Source: Planctomycetota bacterium
GTDB lineage: Bacteria; Planctomycetota; Brocadiia; SM23-32
Length of the DNA: 64,000 nt
Direction of reading: 5' to 3'
Assembly (NCBI GenBank): GCA_021161675.1
Contig: JAGHAF010000030.1
Coordinates: forward strand, 9,376-73,375
Part shown: piece after piece, positions 4,409 through 19,747 of the stretch
Layout: each line of letters opens with the position of its first letter
Numbering within the stretch: position 1 is the first letter of the stretch
The notes under the pieces: generated by a model
Told to the model about the DNA's origin: nothing
The model's input: only the letters and a program-made list of their open reading frames with translations
The model's database searches: none
Program-made: the position numbers and the translations under genes

Positions 4409-4415
4409 GAGCTCG

Positions 4416-4934
4416 TCACCCCGATTCAGGAATCTTCAGCGCTTCAACGAGCGTCTCGACGGCCTTCTCCACCGCCCTGCTCACTTCATCGCTCATCTCA
4501 CTTCCCAGCGAGCAGTCGGCCGGCTCAGCCGCAAGCAGCAGGGGCCGGGCGCCGCACGCCGCCCGCAGGAACTCGGCCCCTACTGCGAGAGACGCCGAAT
4601 GAGTTGACATGTCGTCCTGGCGCAGCCGCTCCGGGCCCATGAGCCGAAGCGTGCCCGGCGGCCGGCCGCTGCGGACGGCGTCAACGAAGATGACGACCTC
4701 CGTGCCCAGCCTGGCAAGCCGTGGCAGTTCGTTCTCAGGAACGGCGCCGCCGTCCGCCACGAGGGCTCCGGTGCGACCGACAAGAGCCTGCGCCACGGAG
4801 GGGCCGAACCCGTCGTCGCCTCGCGCCACGTTGCCGACGCCGAGAATCGCGACGTGGCGCGGATCGGTCTTGCCGATCGCCTCGCGGAGCTGCGCAGCCA
4901 GCGATTTCGCTTCCATGCGGCGCGGCCTCCTCAT
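4416..4934 (-). CDS. [NiFe]-hydrogenase maturation endopeptidase (HycI/HyaD/HoxW family)
   Basis: ILGVGNVARGDDGFGPSVA motif, about 160 aa. Confidence 0.8.
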   Translation of the reverse strand: MRRPRRMEAKSLAAQLREAIGKTDPRHVAILGVGNVARGDDGFGPSVAQALVGRTGALVADGGAVPENELPRLARLGTEVVIFVDAVRSGRPPGTLRLMGPERLRQDDMSTHSASLAVGAEFLRAACGARPLLLAAEPADCSLGSEMSDEVSRAVEKAVETLVEALKIPESG

Positions 4935-5055
4935 GATGCGGGTTTAATAACTTACGGGAGAACTTCTACCACGGCGACACAACCAAGACAACGAAACGGC
5001 CCCGGCCGCCCGCCTTTGAAGGCGGGGGCCACCTGTAATAAACTGCACGTTTGCC

Positions 5056-5403
5056 ATGCATGAACTCAGCCTATCAGCGGGAATGCTCGACATCGCCCTT
5101 GAAGCCGCGAAGGCGCACGGCCACGCTTTGCGCGCGCTCAACATCAAGGTCGGCGCCCTGTCCAGCGCCAGCGCGGAGGCGCTCGACTTCTGCATGAAGA
5201 TGCTCCTCGATGAGAGAAGCATGGGGGATGTCGAGGTCCGAATCCGGGAGGCGCCGGCCCGGGCGCGCTGCGAATGCGGGTACGAAGGAGAGATCAAGAA
5301 CCTCTTTGAGGGGTGCCCGCGCTGCGGTGGCTTTCAGCGTGACATATTGGACGGCCAGGATGTCACTTTGGACACAATAGAGGTCGCAAATGACAAGGAT
5401 TAA
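5056..5403 (+). CDS. hypA: hydrogenase nickel incorporation protein HypA
   Basis: MHELSL start and C-terminal CxxC...CxxC zinc site. Confidence 0.9.
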   Translation: MHELSLSAGMLDIALEAAKAHGHALRALNIKVGALSSASAEALDFCMKMLLDERSMGDVEVRIREAPARARCECGYEGEIKNLFEGCPRCGGFQRDILDGQDVTLDTIEVANDKD

Positions 5404-6031
5404 GCTCAATCGGACAGCGCAAAGCCGGAACCAACCCGTCGCCGAGCAGAACCGGACCAAGTTCCAGGACGCCGGCGTGTTCGTGATGAACCTGATCGGC
5501 TCGCCCGGATGCGGCAAGACCACCATTCTAGAGTACACCGCGCGTCACTGTCCCGGCCAGTCAGCCGTAATCGTGGGCGACGTGAAGACCGCCCTCGACG
5601 CGGACCGTATCTTGCAGTGCGACATCCCGGCATACCCCATCGAGACCGGTGGCAGTTGCCACCTGTCGGCGCAGATGATCGCCGACACTATCGCCCGGCT
5701 CGATCTTGACCAGCTTGACTACCTGTTCATCGAGAACGTGGGCAACCTCGTCTGCCCCTCGACGATGGACCTGGGGGAGAACATCAAAGTCGGGGTTCTC
5801 AGCGTGCCCGAGGGCGACGAAAAAGTCCGGAAATATCCCGCCCTGTTCCTGCGGACCGAAGTGGTGTTCATCAACAAGGCCGACCTGCTCCCATACTGCC
5901 CATATGACGTAGAACGGGTCAAGGAAGACTGCCGCAAGGCAAGGCCGGACGTGAAGGTATTCGAGGTCAGCGCCGCGCAGGGGACCGGCTTTGGCCCGTG
6001 GATGGAGTTCCTGCGGCAACCTGACGTCTGA
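5390..6031 (+). CDS. hypB: hydrogenase nickel incorporation GTPase HypB
   Basis: GSPGCGKTT P-loop and G-domain length. No His-rich tract. Overlaps the hypA stop. Confidence 0.85.
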   Translation: MTRIKLNRTAQSRNQPVAEQNRTKFQDAGVFVMNLIGSPGCGKTTILEYTARHCPGQSAVIVGDVKTALDADRILQCDIPAYPIETGGSCHLSAQMIADTIARLDLDQLDYLFIENVGNLVCPSTMDLGENIKVGVLSVPEGDEKVRKYPALFLRTEVVFINKADLLPYCPYDVERVKEDCRKARPDVKVFEVSAAQGTGFGPWMEFLRQPDV

Positions 6032-6039
6032 GGGCAGGC

Positions 6040-8352
6040 GTGAATCATTCATCCGAAAGCACAGGCGCTTCACAGCGGCGAGTCCTGCTCAGGATCCGCG
6101 GCAGAGTGCAGGGCGTCGGCTTCCGCCCCACTATTTACCGGGTGGTCACGGCGCGCGGCTGCGCCGGCGCGATCCGCAACACGCCGCAGGGCGTCTTTCT
6201 CGATATCGAAGGCCCGGCAGGAGCCGTCACTGAGATCGTGGACGAGTTCCGGCGCATCATTCCCGAGCGCGCCCGTGTGGACGAACTCCTCATTGAAGAG
6301 GCCCAGCCGATGGGCCGCGATCGGTTCGTAATCGAGCCGAGCGCCACTTGCGGGGACAGCCTCCTGCCGATCCCACCGGACCTGGCCATGTGTCCGGCCT
6401 GCAAGGATGAACTGCATCAACCCGCTAACCGCCGGGCCGCCTATCCCTTCAACACCTGCACCGCGTGCGGCCCGCGTTTTAGCATCGCCCGGGCGGTGCC
6501 CTTCGACCGGCCGACAAGCGCCATGGACGAGTTCCCCCTCTGCGACGCCTGCCGCGCCGAGTATGAAGCCCCGGAGGACCGGCGTTTCCACGCGCAGACG
6601 ATGTCGTGTCCGCGTTGCGGTCCGTCCCTTACGTGGACGCCGAACCTGGACGAGTTGAAGTTCGAATCCTTGGCGCCGCTGGATGCCGCCCGCCGGGCGT
6701 TGGCGCGCGGGCGCATTGTGGCCGTCAAGGGCCTCGGCGGTTTCCATCTGGCCTGCGACGCCACGCGCGAGGAAGTCGTCGCAGAACTGCGCAAACGTAA
6801 GGAGCGCCCGCACAAGCCACTGGCTGTCATGACGCCGGACATCGAGAGCTGCCGCGGGTTGTGCATGGTAAGCCGGGGGGAGGAGGAGCTTCTGCGCTCC
6901 GCCTCCGCGCCTATTGTGCTCCTGAAGAAACGCCCTGCCGCGCCGCTTGCCGCAGGCGTCGCCCCGGGCCTCCGGCACGTCGGGGTTATGCTCGCCTATA
7001 CGCCGGTGCATCACATGCTTTTCGACGCGCCCGAGATGCCGCCCGCCCTCATTATGACCAGTTGCAACCGCGCGGACGAGCCCATCGCAATCAGCGCACA
7101 GGAAGTGCTCGAGAGGCTGGGCGACATCGCAGACGCCGTCCTCAGCAACGACCGGCCGATAATAAACCGCTGTGACGACTCCGTGTTCACCTTCCACGCG
7201 GGCGGCCCCGTCCCCATCCGGCGCAGCCGCGGATACGTGCCAGAGCCGATTCTTCTCGCCCGCGCGGGGCCTTCCGTTTTCGCCACCGGCGCCATGTGGA
7301 AGAACGCCTTCGCCCTGACCAGCGGCAGGCGCGCGTTCCTCAGCCAGCACATCGGGGACGTCTCCGACGCCGACAACGCCGCCCACTTCGAGGAAACGTT
7401 CCGCAGATTCTCCGCCCTGCTCAGGCTCGAGCCGGAGCTGATAGCCTGCGACCTGCACCCCGACTATCCGACCACGGCTTTCGCGCAACGCCTTGCCGAG
7501 GAACGCGGCCTACCGCTGGTCCAGGTCCAGCATCATCACGCCCACGTCGCCGCCACGCTCGCCGAACACCGCATCGAGGGGCGGGCAATCGGCGTGAGCA
7601 TGGACGGCGCCGGTCTCGGAGCGGACGGGGCGATATGGGGCGGTGAGTTCTTCATCGCGGACCAGGCCTCGTACGATCGGAAGTTCCACCTGCGCTACGT
7701 GCCCATGCCCGGCGGAGAGAAGGCCGTCCTCGAGCCCGACAGGATGGCCCTGGCGCACCTAACGGCGGCCGTCGGAGCCGACGAGGCCCGCGCCCGAATG
7801 CAACGATATCTCGGCCCTGAGAGGTGTGCCAGCCTGCTGGAGATCATGAAAAGGCGCCGCTACTCGCCGCCGACCTCAAGCTGCGGGCGCCTTTTCGACG
7901 CCGTCGCCGCGCTGCTGGACGTGCGCCACTCGATAACCTACGAAGGCCAGGCCGCCTGCGAGCTGGAGGCCATCACCGACGAAAGCGAACGCGGCAGCTA
8001 CGCCTTCTGCTACGATGGCGGCGAGATAGACTGCGCGCCGGTCTTCAGACTGGTCTGTGAAGACCTCGACGAGGGGACGAAGGCCCCTGTGATCGCCGCC
8101 CGATTCCACAACGCCGTGGTGGAGATGATCCGCGAGGGATGCCGCCGCCTGCGGGAGGAGACGGGAATCGTCCGGGTTGCCCTTTCCGGAGGGGTGATGC
8201 AAAACAGGCTCCTTGTCGACCGGACAGTGCCTGTCCTGCGCCAGGAGGGCTTCAACGTGCTGCTGCGCCGACGCGTGCCGCCTAACGACGGCGGCATCTG
8301 CCTCGGCCAGGCCGCCTGCGCCATAGCTCAACTTTCAACGACAGGGGGTTAG
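6040..8352 (+). CDS. hypF: carbamoyltransferase HypF
   Basis: 770 aa: acylphosphatase-like N-terminus, two CxxC zinc fingers (CPACK...CTACGPRF, CDACR...CPRCGP), YrdC-like and Kae1-like domains. Confidence 0.9.
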   Translation: MNHSSESTGASQRRVLLRIRGRVQGVGFRPTIYRVVTARGCAGAIRNTPQGVFLDIEGPAGAVTEIVDEFRRIIPERARVDELLIEEAQPMGRDRFVIEPSATCGDSLLPIPPDLAMCPACKDELHQPANRRAAYPFNTCTACGPRFSIARAVPFDRPTSAMDEFPLCDACRAEYEAPEDRRFHAQTMSCPRCGPSLTWTPNLDELKFESLAPLDAARRALARGRIVAVKGLGGFHLACDATREEVVAELRKRKERPHKPLAVMTPDIESCRGLCMVSRGEEELLRSASAPIVLLKKRPAAPLAAGVAPGLRHVGVMLAYTPVHHMLFDAPEMPPALIMTSCNRADEPIAISAQEVLERLGDIADAVLSNDRPIINRCDDSVFTFHAGGPVPIRRSRGYVPEPILLARAGPSVFATGAMWKNAFALTSGRRAFLSQHIGDVSDADNAAHFEETFRRFSALLRLEPELIACDLHPDYPTTAFAQRLAEERGLPLVQVQHHHAHVAATLAEHRIEGRAIGVSMDGAGLGADGAIWGGEFFIADQASYDRKFHLRYVPMPGGEKAVLEPDRMALAHLTAAVGADEARARMQRYLGPERCASLLEIMKRRRYSPPTSSCGRLFDAVAALLDVRHSITYEGQAACELEAITDESERGSYAFCYDGGEIDCAPVFRLVCEDLDEGTKAPVIAARFHNAVVEMIREGCRRLREETGIVRVALSGGVMQNRLLVDRTVPVLRQEGFNVLLRRRVPPNDGGICLGQAACAIAQLSTTGG

Positions 8353-8510
8353 GTATTTAGGCTATTAGACTATTAGTTACGGCAAAGCCAACGCTAAAGC
8401 CAACGGCAAAACTGTGGGCGGAAGCTTTCTTTTTCTGTTTTCATCCTTCATAATCTATCCTTCATCCTTCTGAAAGCGGTGCTGAGAGGTCCCTAAATAG
8501 CAGTTCACAA

Positions 8511-8724
8511 ACTTGCGACATCACATCTGGTGGGACCAGGCCGCCCGAGGCCGATCGGTACCCGTCCGCGTGGCCGGCCCGCCCACACACGGTAGGCGCG
8601 GCGTCCCCGCCGCGCCCGGGTCCGGCGGGGACGCCGGACCTACCGAAGGTGTTGGGTAAGCGCCGCGGGGCCGCGCTGCGGAGGCACTGAGCAGCATGTT
8701 GCATAATCATGAACTTGTATTTAG
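8511..8724 (+). promoter_or_regulatory. conserved element copy A upstream of hypC: conserved 5' block (ACTTGCGACATCACATCTGGTGGG), variable GC-rich hairpin interior, conserved 3' block (GCATGTTGCATAATCATGAACTTGTATTTAG)
   Basis: Termini nearly identical to copy B at 10153..10296. 5' TTGCGACAT can pair with 3' ATGTTGCAT as 8 bp with one G-U. Interior holds a strong hairpin GGCGTCCCCGCCG...CGGCGGGGACGCC. Confidence 0.5.
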
Positions 8725-8744
8725 ACGCTTAGAGTGAAAGAAAA

Positions 8745-8975
8745 ATGTGCCTGGCAATACCACTGAAGATAGTTGAAGTTGAGGGTCAAATCGGCAGAGT
8801 CAAACTGGATGCAACGACCCGCGAGGTGGGTCTCCAGTTACTTGACGACGCTCGCCCCGGCGATTACGTGCTTGTCCATGCCGGTTTCGCGATACAGAAG
8901 TTGGACGAGCAGGAGGCCGAGGAGACGTTGCGCCTGTGGGACGAGATGGCCCGCCTGGAATTGGGACAGCCATGA
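8745..8975 (+). CDS. hypC: hydrogenase assembly chaperone HypC
   Basis: MCLAIP N-terminus, 76 aa. Confidence 0.9.
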   Translation: MCLAIPLKIVEVEGQIGRVKLDATTREVGLQLLDDARPGDYVLVHAGFAIQKLDEQEAEETLRLWDEMARLELGQP

Positions 8976-10111
8976 GATTCATCGACGACTTCCGCAACGC
9001 GGAACATGTCAAGGCGCTCGCCGGGAGCATCGAGAGGCGTGCAGCGCAGGCGGGCAGGCCGTTGCGTTTCATGGAGGTCTGCGGCGGGCATACGATGGCC
9101 ATCCACCGATTCGGCCTTCCGCAACTGCTTCCCGAAAGCGTCGAACTGCTCAGCGGCCCCGGATGCCCCGTCTGTGTCACGCCGACCACGTATATTGATC
9201 GCGCAATTGAGCTGGGCCGCGATGGCGCCCTGCTGACCACGTTCGGCGACCTCTACCGCGTTCCCGGCAGCGAGCGCAGCGTGGAGGGAGCCTCCGCCGC
9301 GGGGCTTCTGGAGGCGCTGGTAGTCTATTCGCCGCGGGACGCCCTTCGCGCCGCTCAGGACAGCCACGACCGAGAGGTCGTGTTCCTCGCCATCGGATTC
9401 GAGACGACCGCGCCGACTGTCGCAGCGACGCTTCTAGAGGCGAAGCGCCTGGGCCTTCGGAACTTCCGCGTCCTGTCGGGACATAAGACCATGCCCCGCG
9501 CCCTCCGCGCTTTGTTAGAAGCGCCCGAGGTGGCGATAGACGGCTTCATTCTGCCGGGCCACGTCTGCACGATAACCGGCGCCAGGCCGTTTACCTTCAT
9601 TCCCGATGAGTTCGGCGTGCCCTGCTGCGTGACGGGGTTCGAACCGGCGGACATCCTGGCGAGCATAGAGAAGCTGACGGAGCTTTGTGGCCCGGGGCGG
9701 CGACCCGCCCTTGAGAACGCCTACCGCCGGGCTGTCCGGCCCGATGGCAACGAGAAGGCCCTCGCCCTACTGGAGCGCGTTATGGTCCCGGTCGACGCCC
9801 AATGGCGTGGGATCGGTCATATCCCGGGGAGCGGACTGGATTTGGGGCCGCAGTGGCTCGAGTTCCGCGTTGAGCCTCCCGACCCGGAGCGGCCCTCCGC
9901 GGAATATAGCGCCTGCCGCTGCGGGGATGTCCTTCGCGGGCTGATCAAGCCTGCGGAGTGTTCCCTCTTCGGCGAGGTCTGCACGCCGGACAGCCCCGTG
10001 GGGCCCTGCATGGTTTCGTCCGAAGGTTCCTGCGCGGCACACTTCAAATATGGTTCCCAAACATTCACCGCAGGGCTCGCAGAGATCGCAGAGAACGGCA
10101 AAGGATATTGA
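8972..10111 (+). CDS. hypD: hydrogenase maturation factor HypD
   Basis: Start MRFIDDFRN overlaps the hypC stop (ATGA). Motifs CGGHT, GPGCPVC and FEP-type C-terminus with CxxC. Confidence 0.9.
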   Translation: MRFIDDFRNAEHVKALAGSIERRAAQAGRPLRFMEVCGGHTMAIHRFGLPQLLPESVELLSGPGCPVCVTPTTYIDRAIELGRDGALLTTFGDLYRVPGSERSVEGASAAGLLEALVVYSPRDALRAAQDSHDREVVFLAIGFETTAPTVAATLLEAKRLGLRNFRVLSGHKTMPRALRALLEAPEVAIDGFILPGHVCTITGARPFTFIPDEFGVPCCVTGFEPADILASIEKLTELCGPGRRPALENAYRRAVRPDGNEKALALLERVMVPVDAQWRGIGHIPGSGLDLGPQWLEFRVEPPDPERPSAEYSACRCGDVLRGLIKPAECSLFGEVCTPDSPVGPCMVSSEGSCAAHFKYGSQTFTAGLAEIAENGKGY

Positions 10112-10152
10112 CTATTACGGCCGGTTTTTCAGTGTCTGAATAGGAGTTCAGG

Positions 10153-10296
10153 AAATTGCAACATCACATCTGGTGGGTCCGGTCCGCGCGAGACCGCTCA
10201 GCAGGCGCCCGCGTAGCCGGTCCCTCCTCACGGGCAGGCGCGGCGCACTCCAGAGGCAGTCAGCGGCATGTTGCATAATCATGAAGTTGTATTTAG
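10153..10296 (+). promoter_or_regulatory. conserved element copy B upstream of hypE (same conserved termini as copy A, shorter and different interior)
   Basis: AAATTGCAACATCACATCTGGTGGG ... GGCATGTTGCATAATCATGAAGTTGTATTTAG. 5' TTGCAACAT is fully complementary to 3' ATGTTGCA. Confidence 0.5.
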
Positions 10297-10373
10297 CGTG
10301 GCGTTAGTGTTCCCTGTGTCCTGAGTGCAGAGAGAAGCCTGAACTCTTACGATGAACCGGCAGAGGAACCAAT

Positions 10374-11384
10374 ATGACTGAAAAGACCATCAAACTGGGA
10401 CACGGCAGCGGCGGCAGCCTTACGCGCGCGCTGATCGAAGAGACTCTGCTGCGCTACTTCGACTCCCCCCTGCTGGCCGGCCTGCCGGACAGCGCGAAGG
10501 TTCAGCTCCAGGGCGTCCCCGCCGCTTTCACCACGGACACCTACGTGGTAGACCCGCTTTTCTTCCCGGGCGGCGACATCGGGAAGCTGGCCGTATACGG
10601 AACGGTCAACGACCTGGCCGTCGTAGGGGCCATCCCGCGCTTTATCTCCTGTGCGCTCATCATCGAGGAAGGGCTCCCGCAATCGGACCTGCGAACCATC
10701 CTGAGTTCCATGCGCCAGGCCGCAGATCACGCAGGCACGGAAGTGGTCACAGGCGATACGAAGGTCGTTCCACGAGGTAAAGCCGATTCGATCTTCATCA
10801 ATACCGCCGGCATTGGCGCGTTCCGCCCGGAGAGCGCCCTGCCCGATGCCGAGATGAAGGCGGGCGACGTCGTACTCGTCAGCGGCCCCATCGGGGACCA
10901 CGGCGCGGCTGTCCTATCGGCGCGAGAGGGCCTGAACCTGGACTCCGCCATCCTGAGCGATTGCGCCCCGGTGACAGAGGTGGCGCAGGCTATCCTCGCC
11001 GGCGCCAGGCGCACGTCGTTCCTGCGCGACGTCACCCGCGGGGGCCTTGTGACCATCCTGAACGAAGCCGTCGGCGGCGCCCCTCTCGGCCTCCTGCTCA
11101 GGGAACAGGACATACCGGTCCGCCCAGGGGTCCGCTCAATCTGCGAGCTATTGGGGCTCGACCCGTTCTACCTCGCCTGTGAGGGGCGGGTGGCGGCAGT
11201 GATTGACGCCGAAAGCGCCCCGATTGTGGTCGAGGCCGTCCGCAGAACCCCTGCAGGACAGGACGCGACGATCATCGGCGAGGCCACCGCAGAGTACGCG
11301 GGAGAAATAGTTATCGAGACGGCCTTCGGGACGCATCGCCTGGTGCAGATGCTCAGCGGGGAGCAACTGCCGCGCATTTGCTGA
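10374..11384 (+). CDS. hypE: carbamoyl dehydratase HypE
   Basis: PurM-like fold, HGSGG N-terminus, C-terminal PRIC. Confidence 0.9.
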   Translation: MTEKTIKLGHGSGGSLTRALIEETLLRYFDSPLLAGLPDSAKVQLQGVPAAFTTDTYVVDPLFFPGGDIGKLAVYGTVNDLAVVGAIPRFISCALIIEEGLPQSDLRTILSSMRQAADHAGTEVVTGDTKVVPRGKADSIFINTAGIGAFRPESALPDAEMKAGDVVLVSGPIGDHGAAVLSAREGLNLDSAILSDCAPVTEVAQAILAGARRTSFLRDVTRGGLVTILNEAVGGAPLGLLLREQDIPVRPGVRSICELLGLDPFYLACEGRVAAVIDAESAPIVVEAVRRTPAGQDATIIGEATAEYAGEIVIETAFGTHRLVQMLSGEQLPRIC

Positions 11385-11405
11385 GGATCGGACTCGAATG
11401 GTGGT

Positions 11406-11570
11406 TCATTTGCGCCGCAGCATTCCGCGCACGATCAGCTCCACGGCCTTGCTTTCGTCCATGCCCCGGCCCATGAGCGTCTGAAGCCGCCCGGAGTCCG
11501 CGCTTCCGATGGCGGCCTCGTGGGTCAGGCGCCAGGGAATAGCGCAGGTCGCTGGCTTTTGGAAGAGACA
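11406..11570 (-). pseudogene. remnant of a sufB/sufD-family Fe-S assembly gene (C-terminal ~40 codons only)
   Basis: Minus-strand frame reads ...LTHEAAIGSADSGRLQTLMGRGMDESKAVELIVRGMLRRK*. This matches the conserved SufB/SufD C-terminus (HEAxxxxIxxxQLFYLxxRGIxEExAxxMIVxGF). A stop lies immediately upstream in frame and there is no start. Confidence 0.4.
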
Positions 11571-11689
11571 TATTCATAGTCCTCATGTTTGACCTGGATA
11601 TAGCGCAAAAGTCAGAGTATAAACGCCCTCGGGCACAAAGCCACTTACAAACGGGAGGACATTTTCTCAACAAATCACTGCCGGGGCTC

Positions 11690-11718
11690 TTGACGAAAAC
11701 CCCCCTTTGCTTTACGTT
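11690..11718 (+). promoter_or_regulatory. candidate sigma-70 promoter for the hydrogenase structural genes (TTGACG-17 nt-TACGTT)
   Basis: Hexamers with 17-nt spacing about 100 nt upstream of the small-subunit ATG. GGGAGA RBS 7 nt before the ATG at 11821. Confidence 0.35.
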
Positions 11719-11820
11719 CATTGCCAGAGTTGCGCGACAGATGGCGACGAGCGCTTTTGTTGCCCTAATTCCTTCTTGCGCAGGGCCTTATCCCTATTCG
11801 TAAAGCTCCGGGAGAACCCC

Positions 11821-12675
11821 ATGGCATGTAATGAAGTTCCCGTTGTCTGGCTCCAGGGGGGCGGATGTTCGGGCTGCACCGTTTCCCTGGCGAACTCGCT
11901 GTTCCCGTCACTGCGAAACATCCTGCTCGATCAGCTCCTGCCTGGCACGCACCTGAGCCTTCTCTATCACCCCACCCTGATGGCCGGGCAAGGCGAGGGG
12001 GCCTTTTCAGTCCTGGACCGGCCGCTCGGTCAGGGCTACGTGCTCGCCATCGAGGGCGCCATTCCAGAGAACGATCAATTCTGCACCATCGGCGAGAAGA
12101 ACGGTCAGGAGGTGACGATTCTCTCCAAGTTCGTGGAACTGGCCTGCGACGCCTCGCTCGTGCTGGCCGTGGGAACGTGTTCTTCCTTCGGCGGGATACC
12201 CGCCGGCTCGCCCAATCCTGGCGGATTCGCTTCGGCCGGCCAGGTAGCGGCCAAATATGATATCACGACGCCGGTGGTGAACGTGCCGGGCTGCCCGGCT
12301 CACCCCGATTGGATAGTCACCGCCATAGCCGAATTCCTCTTGGCCGGCGCCGGGGGACTCAGGCTGGATGCGCTGGGACGGCCCATGTCCATTTACGGGC
12401 AACTGATACATGAGAACTGCCCCCGGCGCGCCTACTACGACGAGGGCAAATTCGCTGAGAAACCGGGCGACCCAGAGTGCCTCCACGAACTCGGCTGCAA
12501 GGGGCCGATCACATACGCGGACTGCCCACTTCGACGGTGGAACAACGCGACAAACTGGTGCGTCGGGGCCGGCGGGCCCTGCAACGGCTGCACTCAACCG
12601 GAGTACATTGACGAGACGACCCCCTTCTACCAGAAGCTGCCCGAGGACGCCCTGCCGAAGATCGGCCAGGCGTAA
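11821..12675 (+). CDS. [NiFe]-hydrogenase small subunit, cytoplasmic type (no Tat signal peptide)
   Basis: VVWLQGGGCSGC proximal-cluster motif. C-terminal CPRR..C / CLHELGCKGP / CPLRRWN..NWCVGAGGPCNGC medial and distal cluster ligands. Real start is the MACNEV ATG at 11821, not the tracked 11707. No RRxFxK motif. Confidence 0.9.
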   Translation: MACNEVPVVWLQGGGCSGCTVSLANSLFPSLRNILLDQLLPGTHLSLLYHPTLMAGQGEGAFSVLDRPLGQGYVLAIEGAIPENDQFCTIGEKNGQEVTILSKFVELACDASLVLAVGTCSSFGGIPAGSPNPGGFASAGQVAAKYDITTPVVNVPGCPAHPDWIVTAIAEFLLAGAGGLRLDALGRPMSIYGQLIHENCPRRAYYDEGKFAEKPGDPECLHELGCKGPITYADCPLRRWNNATNWCVGAGGPCNGCTQPEYIDETTPFYQKLPEDALPKIGQA

Positions 12676-12705
12676 TCGTTCACGCTGTTTCCACAGGAGA
12701 TAAGG

Positions 12706-14244
12706 ATGAGCAAAAGCACAATCACGATTGACCCCGTCACCCGGATCGAAGGTCATCTCGGGGTCCGCGTGGAGATGGAGGACGGCGTGATTACTGAGGC
12801 ACGGTGCTCGGGCACGCTTTTCCGGGGCCTGGAGATCATTCTGCGTGGAAGGGACCCTCGAGATGCCCCCATCCTGACTCAGCGCATCTGCGGAGTCTGC
12901 CCGCAGTCCCATGCGACCGCGTCTGCGCTGGCGCTTGATGAAGCATATGGCGTAACCGGCCGGATACCTCAGAACGGCCGCCTGCTGCGGGACATCATGT
13001 TGGGCGCTAATTTTCTCCAGTCGCACGTGCTGCACTTCTATCATCTGGCCGCGCTCGATTACGTGGACGTGACGGCAGTCCAGGGCTATACCGGGAGCGA
13101 TCCCGGCCTCCAATCGGTGAAGGGCTTTATCTCGCGCGGCCAACTGGCGCCGTTCGCGCCGCGCTACGAAGGGGATTATCGCCTCGAGCCCGATGAGAAC
13201 ATTGCGGCGACCAGACACTACATCGAGGCCCTCGACGTCCGGCGAAACGCCCACGAATTGGGGGCGCTGTTCGGCGGCAAAATGCCACATCAATGCACGG
13301 TCAACGTGGGGGGCGTGGGCACGGCGGTCAGCGCGGATAAGATCGTTCGGGCGCTGTCCTACGTCGAGAGTATCCTCGAGTTTATCGACAGCGCATATCT
13401 GCCGGACATCCTCCTCGTCGCCGGGCGTTATCCGGACTACTTCGATATCGGGAGGGGCTGCTCCCGGTTCCTCGCGTTCGGAGCCATGGAGTCAACCGGC
13501 ACGCCGCTTTTTGCTTCAGGCGTCCTCTCGCCCGATGGCCGGTTTTCGGATTTCGAGCGTGAGAATGTCAGTGAGGAAATCGCCACCTCTTACTACTCCG
13601 AGGAGTCGAAGGCCGACACGCCCTTTGACAGCACAACAGTGCCCAATGCGGAAAAGGACGGCGCCTATTCGTGGCTCAAGTCGCCGCGCTACGACGGAAA
13701 GCCCTGCGAGGTGGGGCCACTTGCGCGGATGATGGTCGGCCACGCCGCCGGCGACGAGCGCATTAGAACGGCTGTCGAAGCCCTGCTGGATCAAACCGGC
13801 CTCGACGCCTGCCGGCTCAACTCCACCCTCGGGAGGCACGCCGCCCGCGCGCTGGAGACCAAGCTGGTGGCCACCGCAATGCGAGAATGGATACTGGCCC
13901 TCAGGCCCGGCGAGCCGTGCACGCTGGCGCCGGAGGTCGTGGAATCCGGCCAGGGCGTCGGGCTGACCGAGGCCCCTCGCGGCGCGCTGAGCCACTGGGT
14001 CACGATTCAAGACGGCAAGCTAGCCAATTACCAGTGCGTGGTTCCCACGACGTGGAACGGCAGCCCTCGAGACAGTGAAGGCGTGCCGGGACCGATCGAA
14101 CAGGCGATTGAAGGCGAAGCCATCCGGGATTCGGACAATCCGTTCGAGATAGTGAGGATTATCCGCTCCTTTGATCCGTGCCTGGCGTGCGCCGTTCACC
14201 TGCAACGGCCCAGGGGCGAGTTACACATAGAGTTGCCCATATAG
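12706..14244 (+). CDS. [NiFe]-hydrogenase large subunit
   Basis: N-terminal L1 motif RICGVCPQSH. C-terminal L2 motif DPCLACAVH followed by a 14-aa extension (LQRPRGELHIELPI), the expected substrate of the maturation endopeptidase. 512 aa. Confidence 0.9.
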   Translation: MSKSTITIDPVTRIEGHLGVRVEMEDGVITEARCSGTLFRGLEIILRGRDPRDAPILTQRICGVCPQSHATASALALDEAYGVTGRIPQNGRLLRDIMLGANFLQSHVLHFYHLAALDYVDVTAVQGYTGSDPGLQSVKGFISRGQLAPFAPRYEGDYRLEPDENIAATRHYIEALDVRRNAHELGALFGGKMPHQCTVNVGGVGTAVSADKIVRALSYVESILEFIDSAYLPDILLVAGRYPDYFDIGRGCSRFLAFGAMESTGTPLFASGVLSPDGRFSDFERENVSEEIATSYYSEESKADTPFDSTTVPNAEKDGAYSWLKSPRYDGKPCEVGPLARMMVGHAAGDERIRTAVEALLDQTGLDACRLNSTLGRHAARALETKLVATAMREWILALRPGEPCTLAPEVVESGQGVGLTEAPRGALSHWVTIQDGKLANYQCVVPTTWNGSPRDSEGVPGPIEQAIEGEAIRDSDNPFEIVRIIRSFDPCLACAVHLQRPRGELHIELPI

Positions 14245-14269
14245 CATAAGAGAATCAAGGAGCTCGGCG

Positions 14270-14956
14270 ATGTTAGTGACCGAATTGAAGCCTCAAGATG
14301 AGATACTGGAGGGGCTTGCCGATGATTCCAGCGTCTTCCTTCTGGGCTGCGACGGGTGCGCAAGCGCCTGCGAAACCGGCGGGGCGGAGAACCTGCCCGC
14401 CCTGGCGGAAATGCTTCAGCAGGCAGGCAAGGAGCTGACCGGCCAGACCGCGGTTGACTACCTTTGCAACAAGTCTTTGATCCGCTCATACCTGCGCCCC
14501 TACGAGGCGCAAATAATGGACGCCGACAGCGTCCTGGTGGCCACGTGTGGGGTCGGCGTTCAATGTGTGGCCGACAGCGTCCTGAAGCGCGTCCGGACCG
14601 CTTGCAATACCGTCAACATGGGCGGCGTGAGCGGCGTGCAGATGTCGGGCGAACGCTGCGCCGAATGCGGCGACTGCCTGCTCAGCCAGACCGGCGGCAT
14701 CTGCCCCATCACCGCCTGCTCCAAGAGCATGGTCAACGGGCCGTGCGGCGGGACCTCCAGCGACGGGAAGTGCGAGGTGGACAACAAGCGCGACTGCGGC
14801 TGGTATCGGATCTATCAACGCCTGAAAGAACTCGACGCGCTCGACCAGATGAAGGTAATCATCCCGCCGAAACGACACGGCCTTTTCCTGCCCACTTACG
14901 AGACAATGACCGGCGAGTTCTGGGCCGTGGAAGGCCGGCCGGAGGGGGAGGCGTAA
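14270..14956 (+). CDS. cysteine-rich protein resembling MetV / methylene-THF reductase C-terminal-domain family (putative Fe-S or Zn electron-transfer partner)
   Basis: 228 aa. Motifs GCDGCASACETGG, ATCGVGVQCV, CAECGDCLLSQTGGICPITACSKSMVNGPCGGTSSDGKCEV, WYRIYQRL. Starts 26 nt after the large-subunit stop with an AGGAG RBS. Confidence 0.55.
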   Translation: MLVTELKPQDEILEGLADDSSVFLLGCDGCASACETGGAENLPALAEMLQQAGKELTGQTAVDYLCNKSLIRSYLRPYEAQIMDADSVLVATCGVGVQCVADSVLKRVRTACNTVNMGGVSGVQMSGERCAECGDCLLSQTGGICPITACSKSMVNGPCGGTSSDGKCEVDNKRDCGWYRIYQRLKELDALDQMKVIIPPKRHGLFLPTYETMTGEFWAVEGRPEGEA

Positions 14957-15004
14957 TCTGGCGAGAAGCGCGGGCGATAGACGTCCTGCCCGCCCCCTGC
15001 CGCC

Positions 15005-17077
15005 TCACCAGGACGGCGCCGCTTCGATCAGCTTCGCCGCCGCGTCGCTGTCGAGGGGCCTGGAGAAGAAGAAGCCCTGCGCATATTCGCACTCGAGTTC
15101 TCTGAGGCGGGCCAGGTGCTCAGCCGATTCTACGCCTTCCGCAACGACGGCCATGCCGAGGGAATGCGCCAACGTGATGATCGTGCGGACGATCTCGGCG
15201 TATTCCGCCTTCTTGTCCATGCCGCCGACGAAGCTGCTGTCTATCTTCAGCGTGCTTATGGGAAACTGGTGCAAGTAGCTGAGGGACGAATAACCCGTCC
15301 CGAAGTCATCCATCTCCAGCAGAACGCTCATAGCCTGGAGATCAAAGAGGATCCTGACCTGCTGTGGCGCGTTCTCCATTACCGTCGTCTCGGTAATCTC
15401 CAGCTTCAGGCACTCGGCGGCAAGGCCGGTTTCACGAAGAACGCGGCGCACGTGCGAGATAAGATCAGGCTCCGCAAACGTCTTGCTTGACAGGTTAACG
15501 TTCACTTCGAGGGGCCGCACAGAAGGAAACTGAGCCTGCCATTCGCAAGCCTGCTGGCAGGCTTCGTACATCACCCACTGGTCTATGGAAGCGATCTGGC
15601 CGCTATCTTCAGCGATAGGCAAGAACGCACCCGGCGCGATAACACCACGCTGCGGATGTTCCCAGCGCACAAGCGCCTCAAAGCCGGTGACCCTGCCGTC
15701 CTGGAGACGGATAATCGGTTGATACTGGATCGCCAGCTCGCGGCGATCCAAAGCCTTGCGCAGGTCCGCGTCTAATTGCAGGCGCAGGACCGCGTAATCG
15801 CGCATGTGCTGGTCAAAGATGCCGTAGCGCGCCTTGCCCTCGGCTTTGGCGTGGTACATGGCGGCGTCGGCATCGCGCAGCGCTTCCTCCGGGGTCTCGT
15901 ATACGCCGGCAGAGCCCAGTGCAATCCCGATGCTTGCGCTGACGAACACCTCTTGGCCCAGCACCTCAAGAGGCGGCGCAAGCCCTTCGAGCACCCGCTC
16001 AGCGATGGCGCCCGCGCCCCTGGCGTCGTGGACATCACCTGCCAGAATGGCGAACTCGTCCCCGCCAAGCCTTGCAACCATATCTATGGCGCGCATACAC
16101 TTCAGCAGCCTTCGGGAAGTCTCCATAAGCAGTCCATCGCCCGCCACGTGCCCAAGGCTGTCGTTGATAAACTTGAAATTATCCAGGTCCACAAGGAGCA
16201 CTGCGTAAACATAGCCGTCTTGCCGCCTGGCGCGTTGAATCGAATAACGCAGCCTCTCCATGAACAGAGCGCGATTCGGCAGGTCAGTCAGCCCGTCGTG
16301 GACTGCGCCGTACGCCAACTCCTCCTCCATGCGTTTGCGGCGGGTAACGTCACGGAGCAAGGCCAGGTGAGCCATTTGCCCCTTCCACTCCATTTCGGCC
16401 ACGCGCATTTCGGCCACTACCTGAGTTGCGTCGCCGCGAATGATCTGGAGTTCCTGCGTCCTTCCGCTCAGCACCGGAAAGCCGAAGGGCTCGTCAAGCA
16501 TGTCGGTGGCGCCCCGACCCATGAGCGCCTCACCGGCAGGATTGACAAGCTGCACAATGCCATCCTTGTTCACGATTATTATGCCATCGGCGCTTGTTCG
16601 GATGATGCTGCGAAAGCGGCCCTCGCTGGCCTTCAGCTCGTTCTCTCTCCGCTTATGCTCAAGGGCGGAACGCAGAACACGCTGGAGCATCCTGCCGCCA
16701 AAATCCCCCTTTACCAGGTAGTCGTCCGCATATCCGTAGCGGATTCCCTTCCGGACCACCTTGTTCAGAAGCTCGGTGAGCACGACAACAGGTATGTCCG
16801 GGGCCTTGCGGCGAAATTCCACAAGCGTATTGCGCCCTTTTGAATCCGGCAATTCAAGGTCCAGCAAGACCACGTCAATGCCGCCCTCGGCAATGCGCTT
16901 GAGTCCCGCGCGAAGGCAATCAGCCGATTCCAACGCAAAGGCGCTCTTTTGACCTTTCGCGAGCGCCGCCCGCACCAGTTCCACATCCCGAGGATTATGA
17001 TCGATAAGCAACACATTGATGGCGTCTGCGCTTATTCTACCGCCTCCGTGCATCGTCCACAGCAAGGATTGACTCAC
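15005..17077 (-). CDS. response regulator receiver-PAS-GGDEF-EAL protein (c-di-GMP turnover)
   Basis: N-terminal receiver domain with the phospho-acceptor Asp in VVLLDLELPD, a PAS domain, a GGDEF motif (RLGGDEF), and EAL-domain motifs (EVLVRW, DDFGTGYSSL). Confidence 0.85.
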   Translation of the reverse strand: MSQSLLWTMHGGGRISADAINVLLIDHNPRDVELVRAALAKGQKSAFALESADCLRAGLKRIAEGGIDVVLLDLELPDSKGRNTLVEFRRKAPDIPVVVLTELLNKVVRKGIRYGYADDYLVKGDFGGRMLQRVLRSALEHKRRENELKASEGRFRSIIRTSADGIIIVNKDGIVQLVNPAGEALMGRGATDMLDEPFGFPVLSGRTQELQIIRGDATQVVAEMRVAEMEWKGQMAHLALLRDVTRRKRMEEELAYGAVHDGLTDLPNRALFMERLRYSIQRARRQDGYVYAVLLVDLDNFKFINDSLGHVAGDGLLMETSRRLLKCMRAIDMVARLGGDEFAILAGDVHDARGAGAIAERVLEGLAPPLEVLGQEVFVSASIGIALGSAGVYETPEEALRDADAAMYHAKAEGKARYGIFDQHMRDYAVLRLQLDADLRKALDRRELAIQYQPIIRLQDGRVTGFEALVRWEHPQRGVIAPGAFLPIAEDSGQIASIDQWVMYEACQQACEWQAQFPSVRPLEVNVNLSSKTFAEPDLISHVRRVLRETGLAAECLKLEITETTVMENAPQQVRILFDLQAMSVLLEMDDFGTGYSSLSYLHQFPISTLKIDSSFVGGMDKKAEYAEIVRTIITLAHSLGMAVVAEGVESAEHLARLRELECEYAQGFFFSRPLDSDAAAKLIEAAPSW

Positions 17078-17292
17078 CGAAGTTATGATACGGACGCGCC
17101 GACCCCACTATCAAGAGGAACATGGCGATGGGATGGGGGATCACCGGCCAGGGCCGCCACGCCCGGCGTCAGGAACTCACAGCGGCCCGGGCCACTGAGT
17201 TGTCCCAGCCCGAGACGCAGTCTGAACGCGCAACCCGTGGGAGGCGCCAGGGCAGCGTTCAGCCCGCAATTGGCCGGGGACGATTCGCTTTG

Positions 17293-17766
17293 CTATGCCA
17301 ATGTCGCCACCCAATCGCCAAGCCAGCGGGTGATAACGATCACGACCACTGCAATCGCAATATGCTCTGATATAATCCCCCAGGGCGGCTTCTTCTGCGC
17401 CCTTGCGATTGCATAACTTAGGACGGTGAGAAGGCACAATCCGAAGGCAACGCTCACGATGATCGCAACAGAGAGCGGCAGGAGAAGCACCGGCACAACG
17501 AAAGTCATCGCGAACAGGAACTTCGCAAAGAAAGTCGCCGTTGTAGCGATCCAAATCTGTTTGGTAGTATGAGTGTTCTCCGATTCCTCTGAGATATGCA
17601 TACCAAGAGCATCAGAAAATGCGTCGGCAACTGCGATTGTAAGGATTGCACTGATGACGACCATCTTAGAGTGAGTGCCTGAATGCAGGCCGACCATCAC
17701 TCCAAGAGTCGTGATAATGGCCGAAGTAAGGCCAAAAGCAACGCCTTTGCGCAAATGATCCTTCAC
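17293..17766 (-). CDS. VIT1/CCC1-family (DUF125) membrane protein, putative iron/manganese transporter
   Basis: 157 aa, four predicted TM helices, GLxxGxxxxxAxxxGxxxA-like pattern. Weak assignment. Confidence 0.45.
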   Translation of the reverse strand: MKDHLRKGVAFGLTSAIITTLGVMVGLHSGTHSKMVVISAILTIAVADAFSDALGMHISEESENTHTTKQIWIATTATFFAKFLFAMTFVVPVLLLPLSVAIIVSVAFGLCLLTVLSYAIARAQKKPPWGIISEHIAIAVVVIVITRWLGDWVATLA

Positions 17767-18064
17767 GAATGCCCTCTACTATCTGGTTCACGGACAAGCC
17801 ACGTTACCGCTGCAACGGCATGATACCGAAACCAGAAGAGGGGCACAAGCACGCCACACGGACAGGGACGGCTGCGCAGTTATCGGCCCGCCACCCACAG
17901 GGGCTCGGCCTGTCGCCGTCCTTACGCCGACGCAGTTCGAAACGTTTTCCTGCCGAAACCGCCGGCGCCCGTTACTGCCTGAGCCTCGTATATGGGATAC
18001 AAGATGGAGAAGCTTGATGGCCGGCAGGGCATGCATTATGCTTTAGGCGCGACGTGCAATTAGC

Positions 18065-19747
18065 GTGAAAGTCCTGGTGCCCGATAAAATGAACGAAGAG
18101 CGCCTCAGCACAGCCGTGGACGGCCCGAACAGCCTCGCGGCCGGAGAGTTCGCCCCGGAGGGCCGGGAGGCGCTGGAACTGGCCATCCTCAGCGAGGTAA
18201 GCCGCACCATAGGCGACGCCCTCGAGCTGGAGAAGGTTTTCGAGGAGACAATGCGCGTCCTGGCAGGAAAGCTGCGGATGAAACGGGGCACGTTGGTGCT
18301 GCTGGACAGGACAGCTAATCGCCTAAAAATCGTAGCCGCTCATGGCCTGAGCCCCCAGGAAAAGCAACGAGGAAAATACCGGATAGGCGAAGGAGTTACT
18401 GGAAGGGTTGTGAAAACGGGGCAACCGGTCGCAATAGCAGATATCTGCAAGAACCCCTTATTCTTGAATCGCACTGGAGCCAGAGGCGCCGAGAAGGAGC
18501 GCGGCCACGTATCCTTCGTATGCGTCCCGCTGCGCGTGGACAACGAAGTCGTGGGCGCTATCAGCATAGACCGCGACTTCGTGGACGAGCAGACCCTCGC
18601 CAAGGACCAGCGCCTCCTCCATATAATCGGATCACTTATATCCCAAGCCATCAAGATAAACCGAATGGTGATGATAGACAGGCAACTGTTGCTCGATGAG
18701 AACGTCCGCCTGCGCAAGGACCTGACGTCCCGCTACAAGTTCGGCAGTATCGTGGCCGTCAGCGGCGCCATGAAGGACGTAGTCGCCACGGCGGCCACCG
18801 TCGCCAAGAGCGGCGCCACCGTCCTGATACGCGGCGAGACCGGCACGGGCAAGGAACTGATAGCAAGCGTGCTGCACTATAACAGCGACCGGGCGAAAGG
18901 CCCCTTTATAAAGGTCAATTGCAGCGCATTATCCGAAGGGCTGCTGGAGACCGAACTTTTCGGCCACGTCCGAGGCGCCTTCACCGGCGCCGTCGAGGAC
19001 CGCAAAGGCAGATTCGAGCTTGCCGACGGCGGCACGATATTCCTGGACGAAGTGGGCTCGATGAGCGAACAGCTCCAGGCAAAGCTTTTGCGCGTGCTCC
19101 AGGAGAGAGAATTCGAGCGGGTCGGCGGCGCCAAAACCATCGAGATTGACGTGCGAGTCGTTGCGGCGACAAACATGGACCTGGAGGAGCTTATGTCAGA
19201 AGGCGCCTTCAGGCAAGACCTGTTCTACCGCCTCAACGTGATACCCATCTTCATACCCCCCTTGCGAGAACGCCGGGAGGATATCCAGTTTCTGGTGCAG
19301 CATTTCCTGGACAAGTATAATGAACATTACGGCAAGGCCGTAGAGAAGATGTCTCGCCAGGTCATGGACGCGCTGCTGGAATATCCCTGGCCCGGCAACG
19401 TGCGTGAACTGGAAAGCTGCATCGAAAGGGCTGTCGTTCTCAGCCAGGACGGCGCCCTATCGATGAGTCTTCTGCCGATAAACATCCGCAGTTTCAGAGA
19501 ATCAGAAAGGCGCCCGGGGCCCATTCGGCAAGCTTCTGAGGATGTTCTGGCGCAGTTGATAAAGGGTCTACGCTCATCACACGTGTCAGGCGCGTCCGGT
19601 CTGCACACCACCGTTATATCACAGGTCGAGAAGGCGCTGCTAACAGAAATACTCGAAGCCAATGATCACGTGCAAACTCGAGCCGCCAGAGAGCTGGGCA
19701 TAACCCGTAACACTCTGCGCAAACGGATAAGAGAGTACGGACTTTAG
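18065..19747 (+). CDS. sigma-54-dependent transcriptional activator with N-terminal GAF domain (FhlA/HyfR/NifA-like)
   Basis: GAF region, AAA+ sigma-54 interaction domain (GETGTGKE Walker A, GAFTGA, ESELFGH, WPGNVREL), C-terminal Fis-type HTH. GTG start; alternative ATG at 18092. Confidence 0.85.
   Translation: MKVLVPDKMNEERLSTAVDGPNSLAAGEFAPEGREALELAILSEVSRTIGDALELEKVFEETMRVLAGKLRMKRGTLVLLDRTANRLKIVAAHGLSPQEKQRGKYRIGEGVTGRVVKTGQPVAIADICKNPLFLNRTGARGAEKERGHVSFVCVPLRVDNEVVGAISIDRDFVDEQTLAKDQRLLHIIGSLISQAIKINRMVMIDRQLLLDENVRLRKDLTSRYKFGSIVAVSGAMKDVVATAATVAKSGATVLIRGETGTGKELIASVLHYNSDRAKGPFIKVNCSALSEGLLETELFGHVRGAFTGAVEDRKGRFELADGGTIFLDEVGSMSEQLQAKLLRVLQEREFERVGGAKTIEIDVRVVAATNMDLEELMSEGAFRQDLFYRLNVIPIFIPPLRERREDIQFLVQHFLDKYNEHYGKAVEKMSRQVMDALLEYPWPGNVRELESCIERAVVLSQDGALSMSLLPINIRSFRESERRPGPIRQASEDVLAQLIKGLRSSHVSGASGLHTTVISQVEKALLTEILEANDHVQTRAARELGITRNTLRKRIREYGL

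Follow-up and report, generated by a model that had tools for sequence, protein, structure and literature searches.

A probable relic of the Fe-S scaffold gene smsB between hypE and the [NiFe] hydrogenase genes of a Planctomycetota bacterium

In the 64,000-nt stretch of Planctomycetota DNA analysed here (the window), hypE is separated from the structural genes of a [NiFe] hydrogenase by 436 bases, and within this gap lies a fragment of a reading frame on the opposite strand. The locus raises the questions of which gene the fragment stems from, whether it still has a function and how the two functionally related gene sets came to lie side by side. The original prediction had taken the fragment for the last ~40 codons of a SufB/SufD-type gene for Fe-S assembly that has otherwise decayed, and this was borne out. 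We refine the parent to SmsB, a SufB/SufD-like scaffold protein that works together with the ATPase SmsC in the two-gene SMS system of Fe-S cluster assembly. In our main reading, which we give a probability of roughly 85%, the sequence is a non-functional relic of smsB that a deletion or rearrangement brought next to non-coding DNA ahead of the hydrogenase operon. The features of the locus, in window coordinates, are the following.

10374..11384, plus strand: hypE (Pfam AIRS and AIRS_C, HypE homologues), left neighbour, convergent with the relic
11406..11408, minus strand: original smsB stop codon (TGA), at the point where proteins of the family naturally end; in the alignment, full-length relatives stop at this position too
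11409..11531, minus strand: smsB relic, last 41 codons (RLTHEAAIGS...GMLRRK) of a gene of the SmsB/SufBD family
11532..11573, minus strand: 14 extra open codons, ICLFQKPATCAIPW, without significant homology to the family
11574..11576, minus strand: in-frame upstream stop codon (TGA) closing the relic frame, from translation of the three minus-strand frames
11577..11820, no strand: rest of the spacer, 51% GC, non-coding, with a GGAGA ribosome-binding site before the ATG at 11821
11821..12675, plus strand: [NiFe] hydrogenase small subunit (Pfam Oxidored_q6 and NiFe_hyd_SSU_C), right neighbour

On the minus strand, positions 11415..11531 read RLTHEAAIGSADSGRLQTLMGRGMDESKAVELIVRGMLR, followed by RK and the stop at 11406..11408, which lies 21 nt from the stop codon of the convergent hypE. 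Translation confirmed the peptide and stop that had been quoted for 11406..11528, namely LTHEAAIGSADSGRLQTLMGRGMDESKAVELIVRGMLRRK from 11409..11528 with its stop at 11406..11408. The C-terminus of a full-length relative (P0157) reads ...GILRRK, that of the relic ...GMLRRK. The complete open frame comprises 55 codons (11409..11573), with family homology from residue 15 onwards (R, 11529..11531). As predicted, it lacks a start: none of the codons ATG, GTG and TTG occurs ahead of the internal Met (residue 33). The upstream stop had been placed immediately before the quoted peptide, which was inaccurate, the TGA at 11574..11576 being 15 codons away. The only Shine-Dalgarno-like element, GAGGA at 11580..11584, stands before an ATG of another frame, leaving the relic frame with neither a canonical start nor an in-frame ribosome-binding site. 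NCBI nevertheless holds a protein record for the frame, a 55-aa "SufD family" protein with its CDS start at the ATA at 11571..11573; this entry (P0001) is the relic frame with I changed to M. The SufD-family label is hence already known from public annotation.

The resemblance to the SufB/SufD C-terminus was recovered with Pfam, NCBIfam, phmmer and PDB. Pfam SUFBD_core (PF01458) matched the relic at profile positions 197-231 of 232 (E=2.4e-4), and with 35 of 232 positions present the score of 21.1 bits does not reach the gathering cut-off of 27 bits; full-length relatives score 60-85 bits. By these sequence comparisons the relic derives from the SufB/SufD superfamily but is no member protein. 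The NCBIfam E-values were 2.3e-6 for SmsB, 1.7e-4 for SufB and 4.9e-4 for SufD. Against the SmsB model NF052511 the relic reached 26.9 bits, below the curated cut-off of 650 bits; the full-length relatives also remain below it at just 58-85 bits, which indicates that this model is narrower than the bacterial subfamily. An exhaustive phmmer search (1.84e9 proteins, E<=1e-3) returned 91 matches, two of them repeat-driven artefacts and one the frame itself; the genuine matches numbered 89 and always lay at the extreme C-terminus. In a tblastn search with ten full-length family members against the window and 97 loci, this site and its same-species copies were the only hits, and significant ones (E 3e-10 to 2e-8), as the original prediction had anticipated. 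An HMM of the family, made from eight full-length representatives, aligned 39 relic codons (11415..11531) to its final 39 positions (277-315 of 315) with 55.2 bits. The best PDB match was Methanocaldococcus jannaschii SmsB MJ0034 (residues 276-313 of 316, E=8.4e-10), followed by 4dn7 (E=9.4e-5). GC at the three codon positions of 40 relic codons is 0.70/0.475/0.875, like that of real genes here, and this gene-like composition agrees independently with the homology. When the 55-aa frame was used in a word-indexed protein search, nothing but its own NCBI entry came up, and an exact-sequence contig look-up for that entry gave no match. A gapped tblastn extension to 11561 (an 'AIP' tripeptide, implying an internal deletion of 8 codons) was not significant alone and was not adopted.

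Judged by sequence, the parent is of the short SmsB type (MJ0034-like, ~316 aa, with an SmsC partner) and not a classical SufB or SufD. SmsB is closer to the relic than either by both PDB and NCBIfam E-values, and the full-length relatives are SUFBD_core proteins of 307-320 aa that align end to end with MJ0034 (E=8e-71). In the SmsC2B2 scaffold of the SUF-like minimal system (SMS), known from MJ0034 (PDB 9H78, 9H7Y, 9HBL; PMC12192291), SmsB ends right after the ...G-x-L motif, and the relic stop stands in the same register, with ~276 codons missing from the ~316-aa length. In the SMS operon, smsC, coding for an ABC-type ATPase, is located immediately upstream of smsB (PMC12192291); the full-length relatives likewise directly follow a gene for an SmsC-type ABC ATPase. 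The relic itself corresponds to the last ~12% of the protein, without smsC, start codon or Cys ligand. Its host is a bacterium (Planctomycetes), whereas Archaea are described as the organisms in which SMS has mostly been retained (PMC12192291). Candidate cluster ligands of Tk-SmsB are C357, H385 and E386 (PMC12442378). The relic keeps the His-Glu of this set (THEAAIG), while the Cys, expected in the GHVDC motif of the family ~30 residues upstream, would have been in the deleted part. Classical SufB and SufD of the SufBC2D scaffold (TIGR01980, TIGR01981, PF01458) belong to the same superfamily and have the C-terminal motif in common with the relic, its His-Glu pair being equivalent to Ec-SufD H360 and Ec-SufB E434 (PMC12442378). 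They are, however, longer (profiles of 423-484 positions), run 15-20 residues past the point where the SmsB family and the relic stop (in model coordinates) and match the relic more weakly.

How might the fragment have arisen? An intact smsC-smsB operon would once have been located on the minus strand, tail-to-tail with hypE at a distance of 21 nt. Judging from what is missing, a deletion or rearrangement would have taken away smsC together with some 276 codons from the start of smsB, with a breakpoint at about 11531/11532, at or just upstream of the end of the relic homology. Left behind would be the last 39-41 codons with the original stop, now abutting ~290 nt of non-coding, AT-richer sequence that runs up to the hydrogenase operon. 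None of the relatives showed hypE convergent with intact smsB-smsC, the arrangement presumed to be ancestral, so we infer the pre-deletion state rather than observe it.

Beyond the relic homology GC drops from 0.68 to 0.56 (11532..11573), and the family HMM found no further SufBD/SmsB signal in any of the six frames of the spacer. A 122-aa alternative-frame ORF (11353..11721, minus strand) was rejected as spurious, having no family match and being Arg-rich like out-of-frame GC-rich DNA. Positions 11577..11820 presumably contain the promoter of the hydrogenase operon and its leader; neither a sigma-70 promoter or intrinsic terminator consensus nor a sigma-54 -24/-12 element was found in or near the spacer, and within it there were no Rfam families and no repeats. 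When the proximal spacer was aligned with the regions upstream of the hydrogenase in relatives, the ribosome-binding site alone was conserved. Six independently assembled contigs carry the spacer identically except for three SNP sites, all outside the frame, which shows that it is not an assembly artefact.

Neither smsC or an SmsC-like sequence nor a second or parental SmsB/SufBD copy was found anywhere in the window, although an smsC-like ATPase gene is located directly upstream of smsB in 63 of 64 related loci. Among 80 metagenome loci, nearly all matches uncut by a contig edge were the C-terminus of ORFs of 306-381 aa. In another lineage, an intact smsCB is embedded in a hydrogenase/hyp cluster: in L118, L109 and L111, which are ~87% identical and were counted as one lineage, smsC-smsB sits between the [NiFe] large subunit gene and hycI. 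The L118-type cluster is tightly packed on one strand and also contains MvhD, DUF5981 and hypF-C-D-E-B, the same list of parts as in the window.

From this lineage an alternative can be drawn, in which the relic is what remains of a dedicated smsCB that supplied Fe-S clusters to the hydrogenase. An ancestral hyp - smsCB - hydrogenase supercluster would have lost smsC and most of smsB by a single deletion of ~1.6 kb (estimated from ~0.7 kb for smsC plus 276 smsB codons), without insertion of a block; a single deletion is the most parsimonious way of arriving at what is seen today. The precedent is, however, one lineage, and around the remaining 77 smsB loci neither hyp nor [NiFe] hydrogenase genes occur within 10 kb. 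Moreover, the relic is on the strand opposite to hyp and hydrogenase, unlike in L118, is no closer to the L118 SmsB (62% identity) than to the unlinked SmsB of L098 (70%), and relatives of neither the hyp side nor the hydrogenase side carry smsCB. We regard this alternative as rather unlikely. The broader proposition, that smsCB is integral to [NiFe]-hydrogenase/hyp clusters in some anaerobic bacteria and that the relic marks the loss of a hydrogenase-dedicated SmsCB scaffold from a linkage since dispensed with, appears doubtful.

The neighbourhoods of the relatives point to rearrangement. In the four closest hypE relatives (67-73% identical), hypE is followed by pfkB in three and by an antitoxin gene in the other, never by hydrogenase or smsB; a scan of GTDB genomes with HypE yielded relatives at 65% identity or less, none with the same junction, and L001 is arranged differently. 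None of the closest relatives on the hydrogenase side (75-80% identical) has hyp genes in the vicinity, and what lies upstream differs from one to the next. Where the sequence was long enough (L087/L088, L089), their operon reads hynS-hynL-hycI-DUF5981-MTHFR, while that of the window is without hycI and MTHFR. The spacer occurs in same-species contigs only (99.3-99.8% identical); no relative carries it. In our main reading, the adjacency of hypE and hydrogenase is derived and lineage-specific, a product of local genome remodelling and not of recent foreign import.

The original prediction had considered that one of the blocks was inserted or rearranged here, possibly by horizontal acquisition of the hydrogenase. 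The synteny comparison upholds the rearrangement. An incoming hydrogenase block that inserted into smsB and truncated it would fit the lack of linkage to hyp and the varying upstream neighbour in all sampled relatives, and the incomplete operon might be expected of a transplanted fragment. Yet the composition is uniform: with a GC of 0.63 the hydrogenase genes match the hyp and housekeeping genes, and GC3 is indistinguishable between hyp (0.77-0.82; short hypC 0.66), hydrogenase (0.76-0.82) and housekeeping genes (0.70-0.83), so that the proposed GC3 comparison revealed no deviation in either block. The nearest small subunits (68-80%) are annotated as Planctomycetes/Brocadiia, like the host; that of the window has no Tat signal region, its NCBIfam alignment beginning at model position 38-49. 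There is no tRNA gene in 1..24000 and no mobile-element end, terminal repeat or MITE copy at the junction or in the spacer. Among the genes called in 1820..22675, neither an integrase nor a transposase was noted. Because of the uniform composition and the origin of the closest hydrogenases, horizontal acquisition is not supported, and an intragenomic rearrangement explains the same facts; we consider the insertion scenario improbable.

Does the relic still do anything? In our main reading it does nothing: it lacks a canonical start, the beta-helix core, the conserved Cys ligand and an SmsC partner, and it is beginning to gain substitutions at positions conserved in intact family members. Six of its 39 aligned positions carry residues seen in less than 5% of 63 intact members, compared with 0-4 in any intact member. 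The frame is free of frameshifts and internal stops and preserves the invariant core. Purifying selection would fit this pattern too, but over 120 nt a young relic fits it just as well. No SNP between the six contigs of the species falls inside the frame, which at 0.2-0.7% divergence is uninformative, the SNPs being too few to test constraint.

That the 55 codons yield a small protein, which would correspond to the helical C-terminal segment of SmsB and might bind or titrate an SmsC encoded elsewhere, is very hard to credit. The NCBI annotation, the open frame with its intact motif and gene-like codons, and the many short SmsB C-terminal ORFs in public data would suit such a protein. These other ORFs, however, have unrelated N-termini and variable breakpoints, as expected of independent truncations rather than of a conserved microprotein family; the frame has an ATA start, a sole Shine-Dalgarno-like element that serves an out-of-frame ATG and an excess of atypical residues; the gene callers of the six assemblies called no gene here; and Cys ligand, dimerising core and local smsC are all missing. 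Clustering of truncation breakpoints among the library matches was rejected as evidence for a hotspot, as 50%-identity clustering and a query restricted to the last 39 residues bias the sample.

Finally, a chance match in GC-rich non-coding DNA, for which the length of 39 residues and the sub-threshold generic Pfam score could be cited, is practically excluded by the phmmer, tblastn, family HMM and PDB results, the HMM match ending exactly at the model end, together with a stop in register with the family C-terminus and a frame-specific GC3 of 0.875.

The sequence is almost certainly an ordinary, inert pseudogene fragment. Like other bacterial gene relics left by deletion, it is short, in register, startless and in possession of its original stop and a residual codon bias, in an otherwise AT-richer spacer; it is unusual only by its position between two functionally related gene sets. 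In itself it matters little, and the public 55-aa SufD-family entry should be taken for a pseudogene fragment of smsB rather than for a functional protein. Along with the absence of hycI and MTHFR, the relic shows that the hyp-hydrogenase adjacency arose by local remodelling in this Planctomycetes lineage, which is relevant where the function or regulation of the hydrogenase is deduced from operon structure here. The smsCB in the hydrogenase/hyp cluster of L118 is a modest lead to the question of whether an SMS scaffold may in some cases be reserved for the maturation of hydrogenases, a route that the SMS papers PMC12192291 and PMC12442378 do not mention. If true, a hydrogenase-dedicated SMS would suggest that the small subunits of hydrogenases are supplied with Fe-S clusters by a specialised route.

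On the minus strand, the spacer between hypE and the hydrogenase genes carries the remnant of an Fe-S scaffold gene. The features of this region are:

Left of the spacer: a Mrp/group-4-type cluster, then hycI (minus strand), then hypA, B, F, C, D, E
10374..11384, plus strand: hypE, left neighbour of the spacer
11385..11820: hypE-hydrogenase spacer, 436 nt
11406..11408, minus strand: TGA stop after the relic peptide (translation)
11409..11528, minus strand: peptide of the original prediction (translation)
11574..11576, minus strand: in-frame TGA upstream of the relic, closing the frame
11821..12675, plus strand: [NiFe] hydrogenase small-subunit gene, right neighbour of the spacer

The relic frame is open for 15 codons further upstream (ICLFQKPATCAIPWR...), as far as the TGA at 11574..11576; the stop had wrongly been placed immediately upstream of the peptide. 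No ATG, GTG or TTG occurs in the frame ahead of an internal Met at residue 33, and the ATG belonging to the sole Shine-Dalgarno-like site (GAGGA, 11580..11584) lies in another frame. The spacer is without gene calls in six metagenome assemblies, while the NCBI pipeline annotates a 55-aa 'SufD family Fe-S cluster assembly protein' (P0001) starting at an ATA codon. A 122-aa Arg-rich ORF in another frame (11353..11721, minus strand) spans the relic and overlaps the hypE 3′ end, with an internal ATG (11569..11571) preceded by the GAGGA at a distance of 8 nt. It has no family match and was called by no metagenome gene caller, and is therefore probably spurious.

Apart from SNPs, the spacer is identical in six same-species contigs from different samples (99.3–99.8% identical overall), hence the locus is no assembly artefact. 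The only SNPs within the spacer are at 11402, 11404 and 11722, two of them within the 21 nt that separate the convergent stops of hypE and the relic, and none in the 55-codon frame.

Generic profiles gave modest scores for the relic. Pfam SUFBD_core matched with E=2.4e-4 and 21.1 bits (profile positions 197–231 of 232), below its cut-off of 27 bits, and the NCBIfam E-values were 2.3e-6 for SmsB, 1.7e-4 for SufB and 4.9e-4 for SufD. The homology is settled by stronger tests. When 1.84 billion representative proteins were searched exhaustively with phmmer, 91 matched at E<=1e-3. Among them is the NCBI entry of the frame itself, and the others align query residues ~15–53, except P0122 and P0131, which were rejected as repeat-driven artefacts. 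The full-length matches have 307–320 aa and score 60–77 bits on SUFBD_core, above the Pfam cut-off. The relic alignment reaches their final residues (269–307 of 307 in P0140, 280–318 of 318 in P0145), and the C-terminus of P0157 is ...GILRRK. tblastn with ten full-length relatives against the window and 97 fetched loci (~1.5 Mb) found no site other than 11409..11531 and the copies of it in same-species contigs, with E-values of 3e-10 to 2e-8. A profile HMM made from eight full-length members scored the relic at 55.2 bits over model positions 277–315 of 315, RLTHEAAIGSADSGRLQTLMGRGMDESKAVELIVRGMLR, and detected no further SmsB-type signal in any frame of the spacer. Codon composition is independent support for a former gene: the 40 relic codons have GC1/2/3 of 0.70/0.475/0.875, similar to the genome's real genes (GC3 0.70–0.83), and GC falls to ~0.51 in the remaining spacer, with the transition near 11530–11540.

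The SMS machinery, a minimal SUF-like system, has two components whose genes form an smsCB operon (PMC12192291). M. jannaschii MJ0034 is the SmsB subunit of the SmsC2B2 structures 9H78, 9H7Y and 9HBL. P0145, one of the full-length relatives, aligns with MJ0034 over its whole length (E=8e-71), and the relic itself matches MJ0034 residues 276–313 of 316 (E=8.4e-10), a far better score than for any other structure. A metagenome scan with the C-terminal alignment yielded 80 loci at 59–70% identity; leaving aside matches truncated at the end of a contig, almost every one forms the C-terminus of a 306–381-aa ORF. Of the 64 smsB loci having enough upstream sequence, 63 have a gene for an SmsC-like ABC ATPase immediately before smsB in the same orientation. 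Because of the MJ0034 match, the C-terminal position and the upstream smsC in relatives, the relic is assigned by homology to the tail of an smsB gene. The SufB/SufD-superfamily identification was thus correct, and its parent can be named more narrowly. The residues regarded as candidate cluster ligands in Tk-SmsB, C357, H385 and E386, correspond to Ec-SufB C405, Ec-SufD H360 and Ec-SufB E434 (PMC12442378). The relic retains the His-Glu pair within THEAAIG but lacks the Cys, which in the family belongs to a GHVDC motif ~30 residues upstream.

The invariant core is kept and there is no frameshift, yet 6 of the 39 aligned positions carry residues present in <5% of 63 intact members, which themselves have 0–4 such positions (median 1–2). 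They include R where the family always has Q/E, A for V/I and G for A/S. One of these six, M for L, may be subgroup-specific since it is shared with the closest fragments, P0123 and P0124. We interpret the pattern as that of a rather young relic free of constraint.

What survives, in register and 21 nt away from the hypE stop, is the last 39–41 smsB codons with their stop codon. Nothing of the gene before model position 277 is left, and smsC is missing too; the window holds neither smsC nor a second SmsB-like sequence. An intact smsC-smsB operon would formerly have been convergent with hypE, and about 1.6 kb or more would have been lost through a deletion or rearrangement that had one of its ends at ~11531/11532. 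This may have been either a simple deletion within a pre-existing hyp-smsCB-hydrogenase neighbourhood, or the relic edge may be the breakpoint of the event that placed the hydrogenase block beside hyp. From 11532 to 11820, alignment to hydrogenase relatives is limited to the ribosome-binding site.

Shortened SmsB sequences occur elsewhere. In 56 of the 88 genuine matches (P0123–P0211), an unrelated N-terminus precedes what is left of SmsB, its final ~35–130 positions; an in-frame SmsC N-terminus (Walker A) is joined to an SmsB C-terminus in P0134, P0147, P0163, P0153 and P0174, and locus L119 has another internal 75-codon SmsB stub. It looks as if deletions within smsCB recur; as 50% clustering and the short query strongly bias this sample, no truncation hotspot is claimed.

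Relatives of both blocks are arranged differently from the window. The four closest HypE relatives (67–73% identical) carry hypF-C-D-E, only hypD-hypE being visible on the short contig L094. Their hypE is followed by pfkB in three (with URO-D in two of these) and by an antitoxin gene in the other, never by smsB or a hydrogenase. None of the closest hydrogenase relatives (L087–L092, small subunit 75–80% identical) has hyp genes nearby, and the upstream gene differs each time: a radical-SAM gene, an 840-aa unknown or a 309-aa unknown without SufBD or SufC domain. The adjacency of hypE and hydrogenase is accordingly derived and the region remodelled, which supports the predicted rearrangement at the junction. 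L089 (hydrogenase) and L096 (hyp), separate 150–200-kb contigs of one metagenome with GC of 0.666 and 0.661, would be compatible with unlinked sets in a relative if both come from one organism.

The operon itself also differs. Relatives with sufficient sequence (L087/L088 and L089, small subunit 75–77% identical) have the order hynS-hynL-hycI-DUF5981-MTHFR. DNA comparison of window 11821..14956 with L087 10001..14492 and L089 10001..14515 showed that in the window the large subunit passes directly to DUF5981, where the operon ends, without the hycI protease and MTHFR (metF-like) genes. No MTHFR occurs in the window, and its sole HycI resembles the L001 group-4-cluster protease (36% identity, E=5e-24), with a weaker match to the L087 operon protease (29%, E=1e-5). 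The relatives' operon points to coupling between the hydrogenase and methylene-THF reductase, a link that appears broken in the window. The small subunit has the N-terminus MACNEVPVVWLQGGGCSGC and its top matches are NiFeSe/group-1-like models. The lack of a twin-arginine signal region and NCBIfam alignments starting only at position 38–49 indicate a predicted cytoplasmic enzyme.

Two copies of a MITE-like repeat lie in the hypF-hypC (8493..8724) and hypD-hypE (10136..10296) spacers, and none elsewhere in the window, including the hypE-hydrogenase spacer. Their ends are 77–87% identical with inverted termini CTAAATAGCAGTTCA...TGAACTTGTATTTAG, and the first copy holds an additional internal 28-nt palindrome (8590..8645). 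In L096 (1..7694), hypF is split from hypC by an insertion of ~5 kb that carries genes for a 527-aa unknown, an NTP_transf_2/HepT toxin-antitoxin pair, DUF6882 and an N_methyl protein. Judging from this insert, spacers within the hyp cluster may often receive insertions in the group, consistent with the window's MITE copies.

The relic might descend from a hydrogenase-dedicated SMS system. In locus L118 (5669..19242; also L109 and L111, ~87% identical), intact smsC-smsB lies inside a tightly packed [NiFe] hydrogenase maturation cluster, on a single strand with overlapping or near-abutting gene ends: small subunit, large subunit, smsC, smsB, hycI, MvhD, Fer4-MvhD, DUF5981, hypF, Fer4, hypC, hypD, hypE, hypB. 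The same set of parts surrounds the relic, and the SMS reports (PMC12192291, PMC12442378) make no mention of such linkage. However, this is one lineage among 80 loci, the relic is oriented differently and it is not especially close to the L118 SmsB, which makes this descent unlikely. Horizontal acquisition of the hydrogenase, also proposed, found no support: the hyp, hydrogenase and housekeeping genes are alike in GC and GC3, annotation places the nearest hydrogenases in Planctomycetes/Brocadiia, and neither a tRNA gene nor a repeat or the end of a mobile element lies at the junction.

The gene relic is genuine but of an ordinary kind, and public annotation has already flagged it. Through the NCBI entry its SufD-type similarity is public, though the record labels the frame as a protein and not as the pseudogene of an SmsB scaffold.
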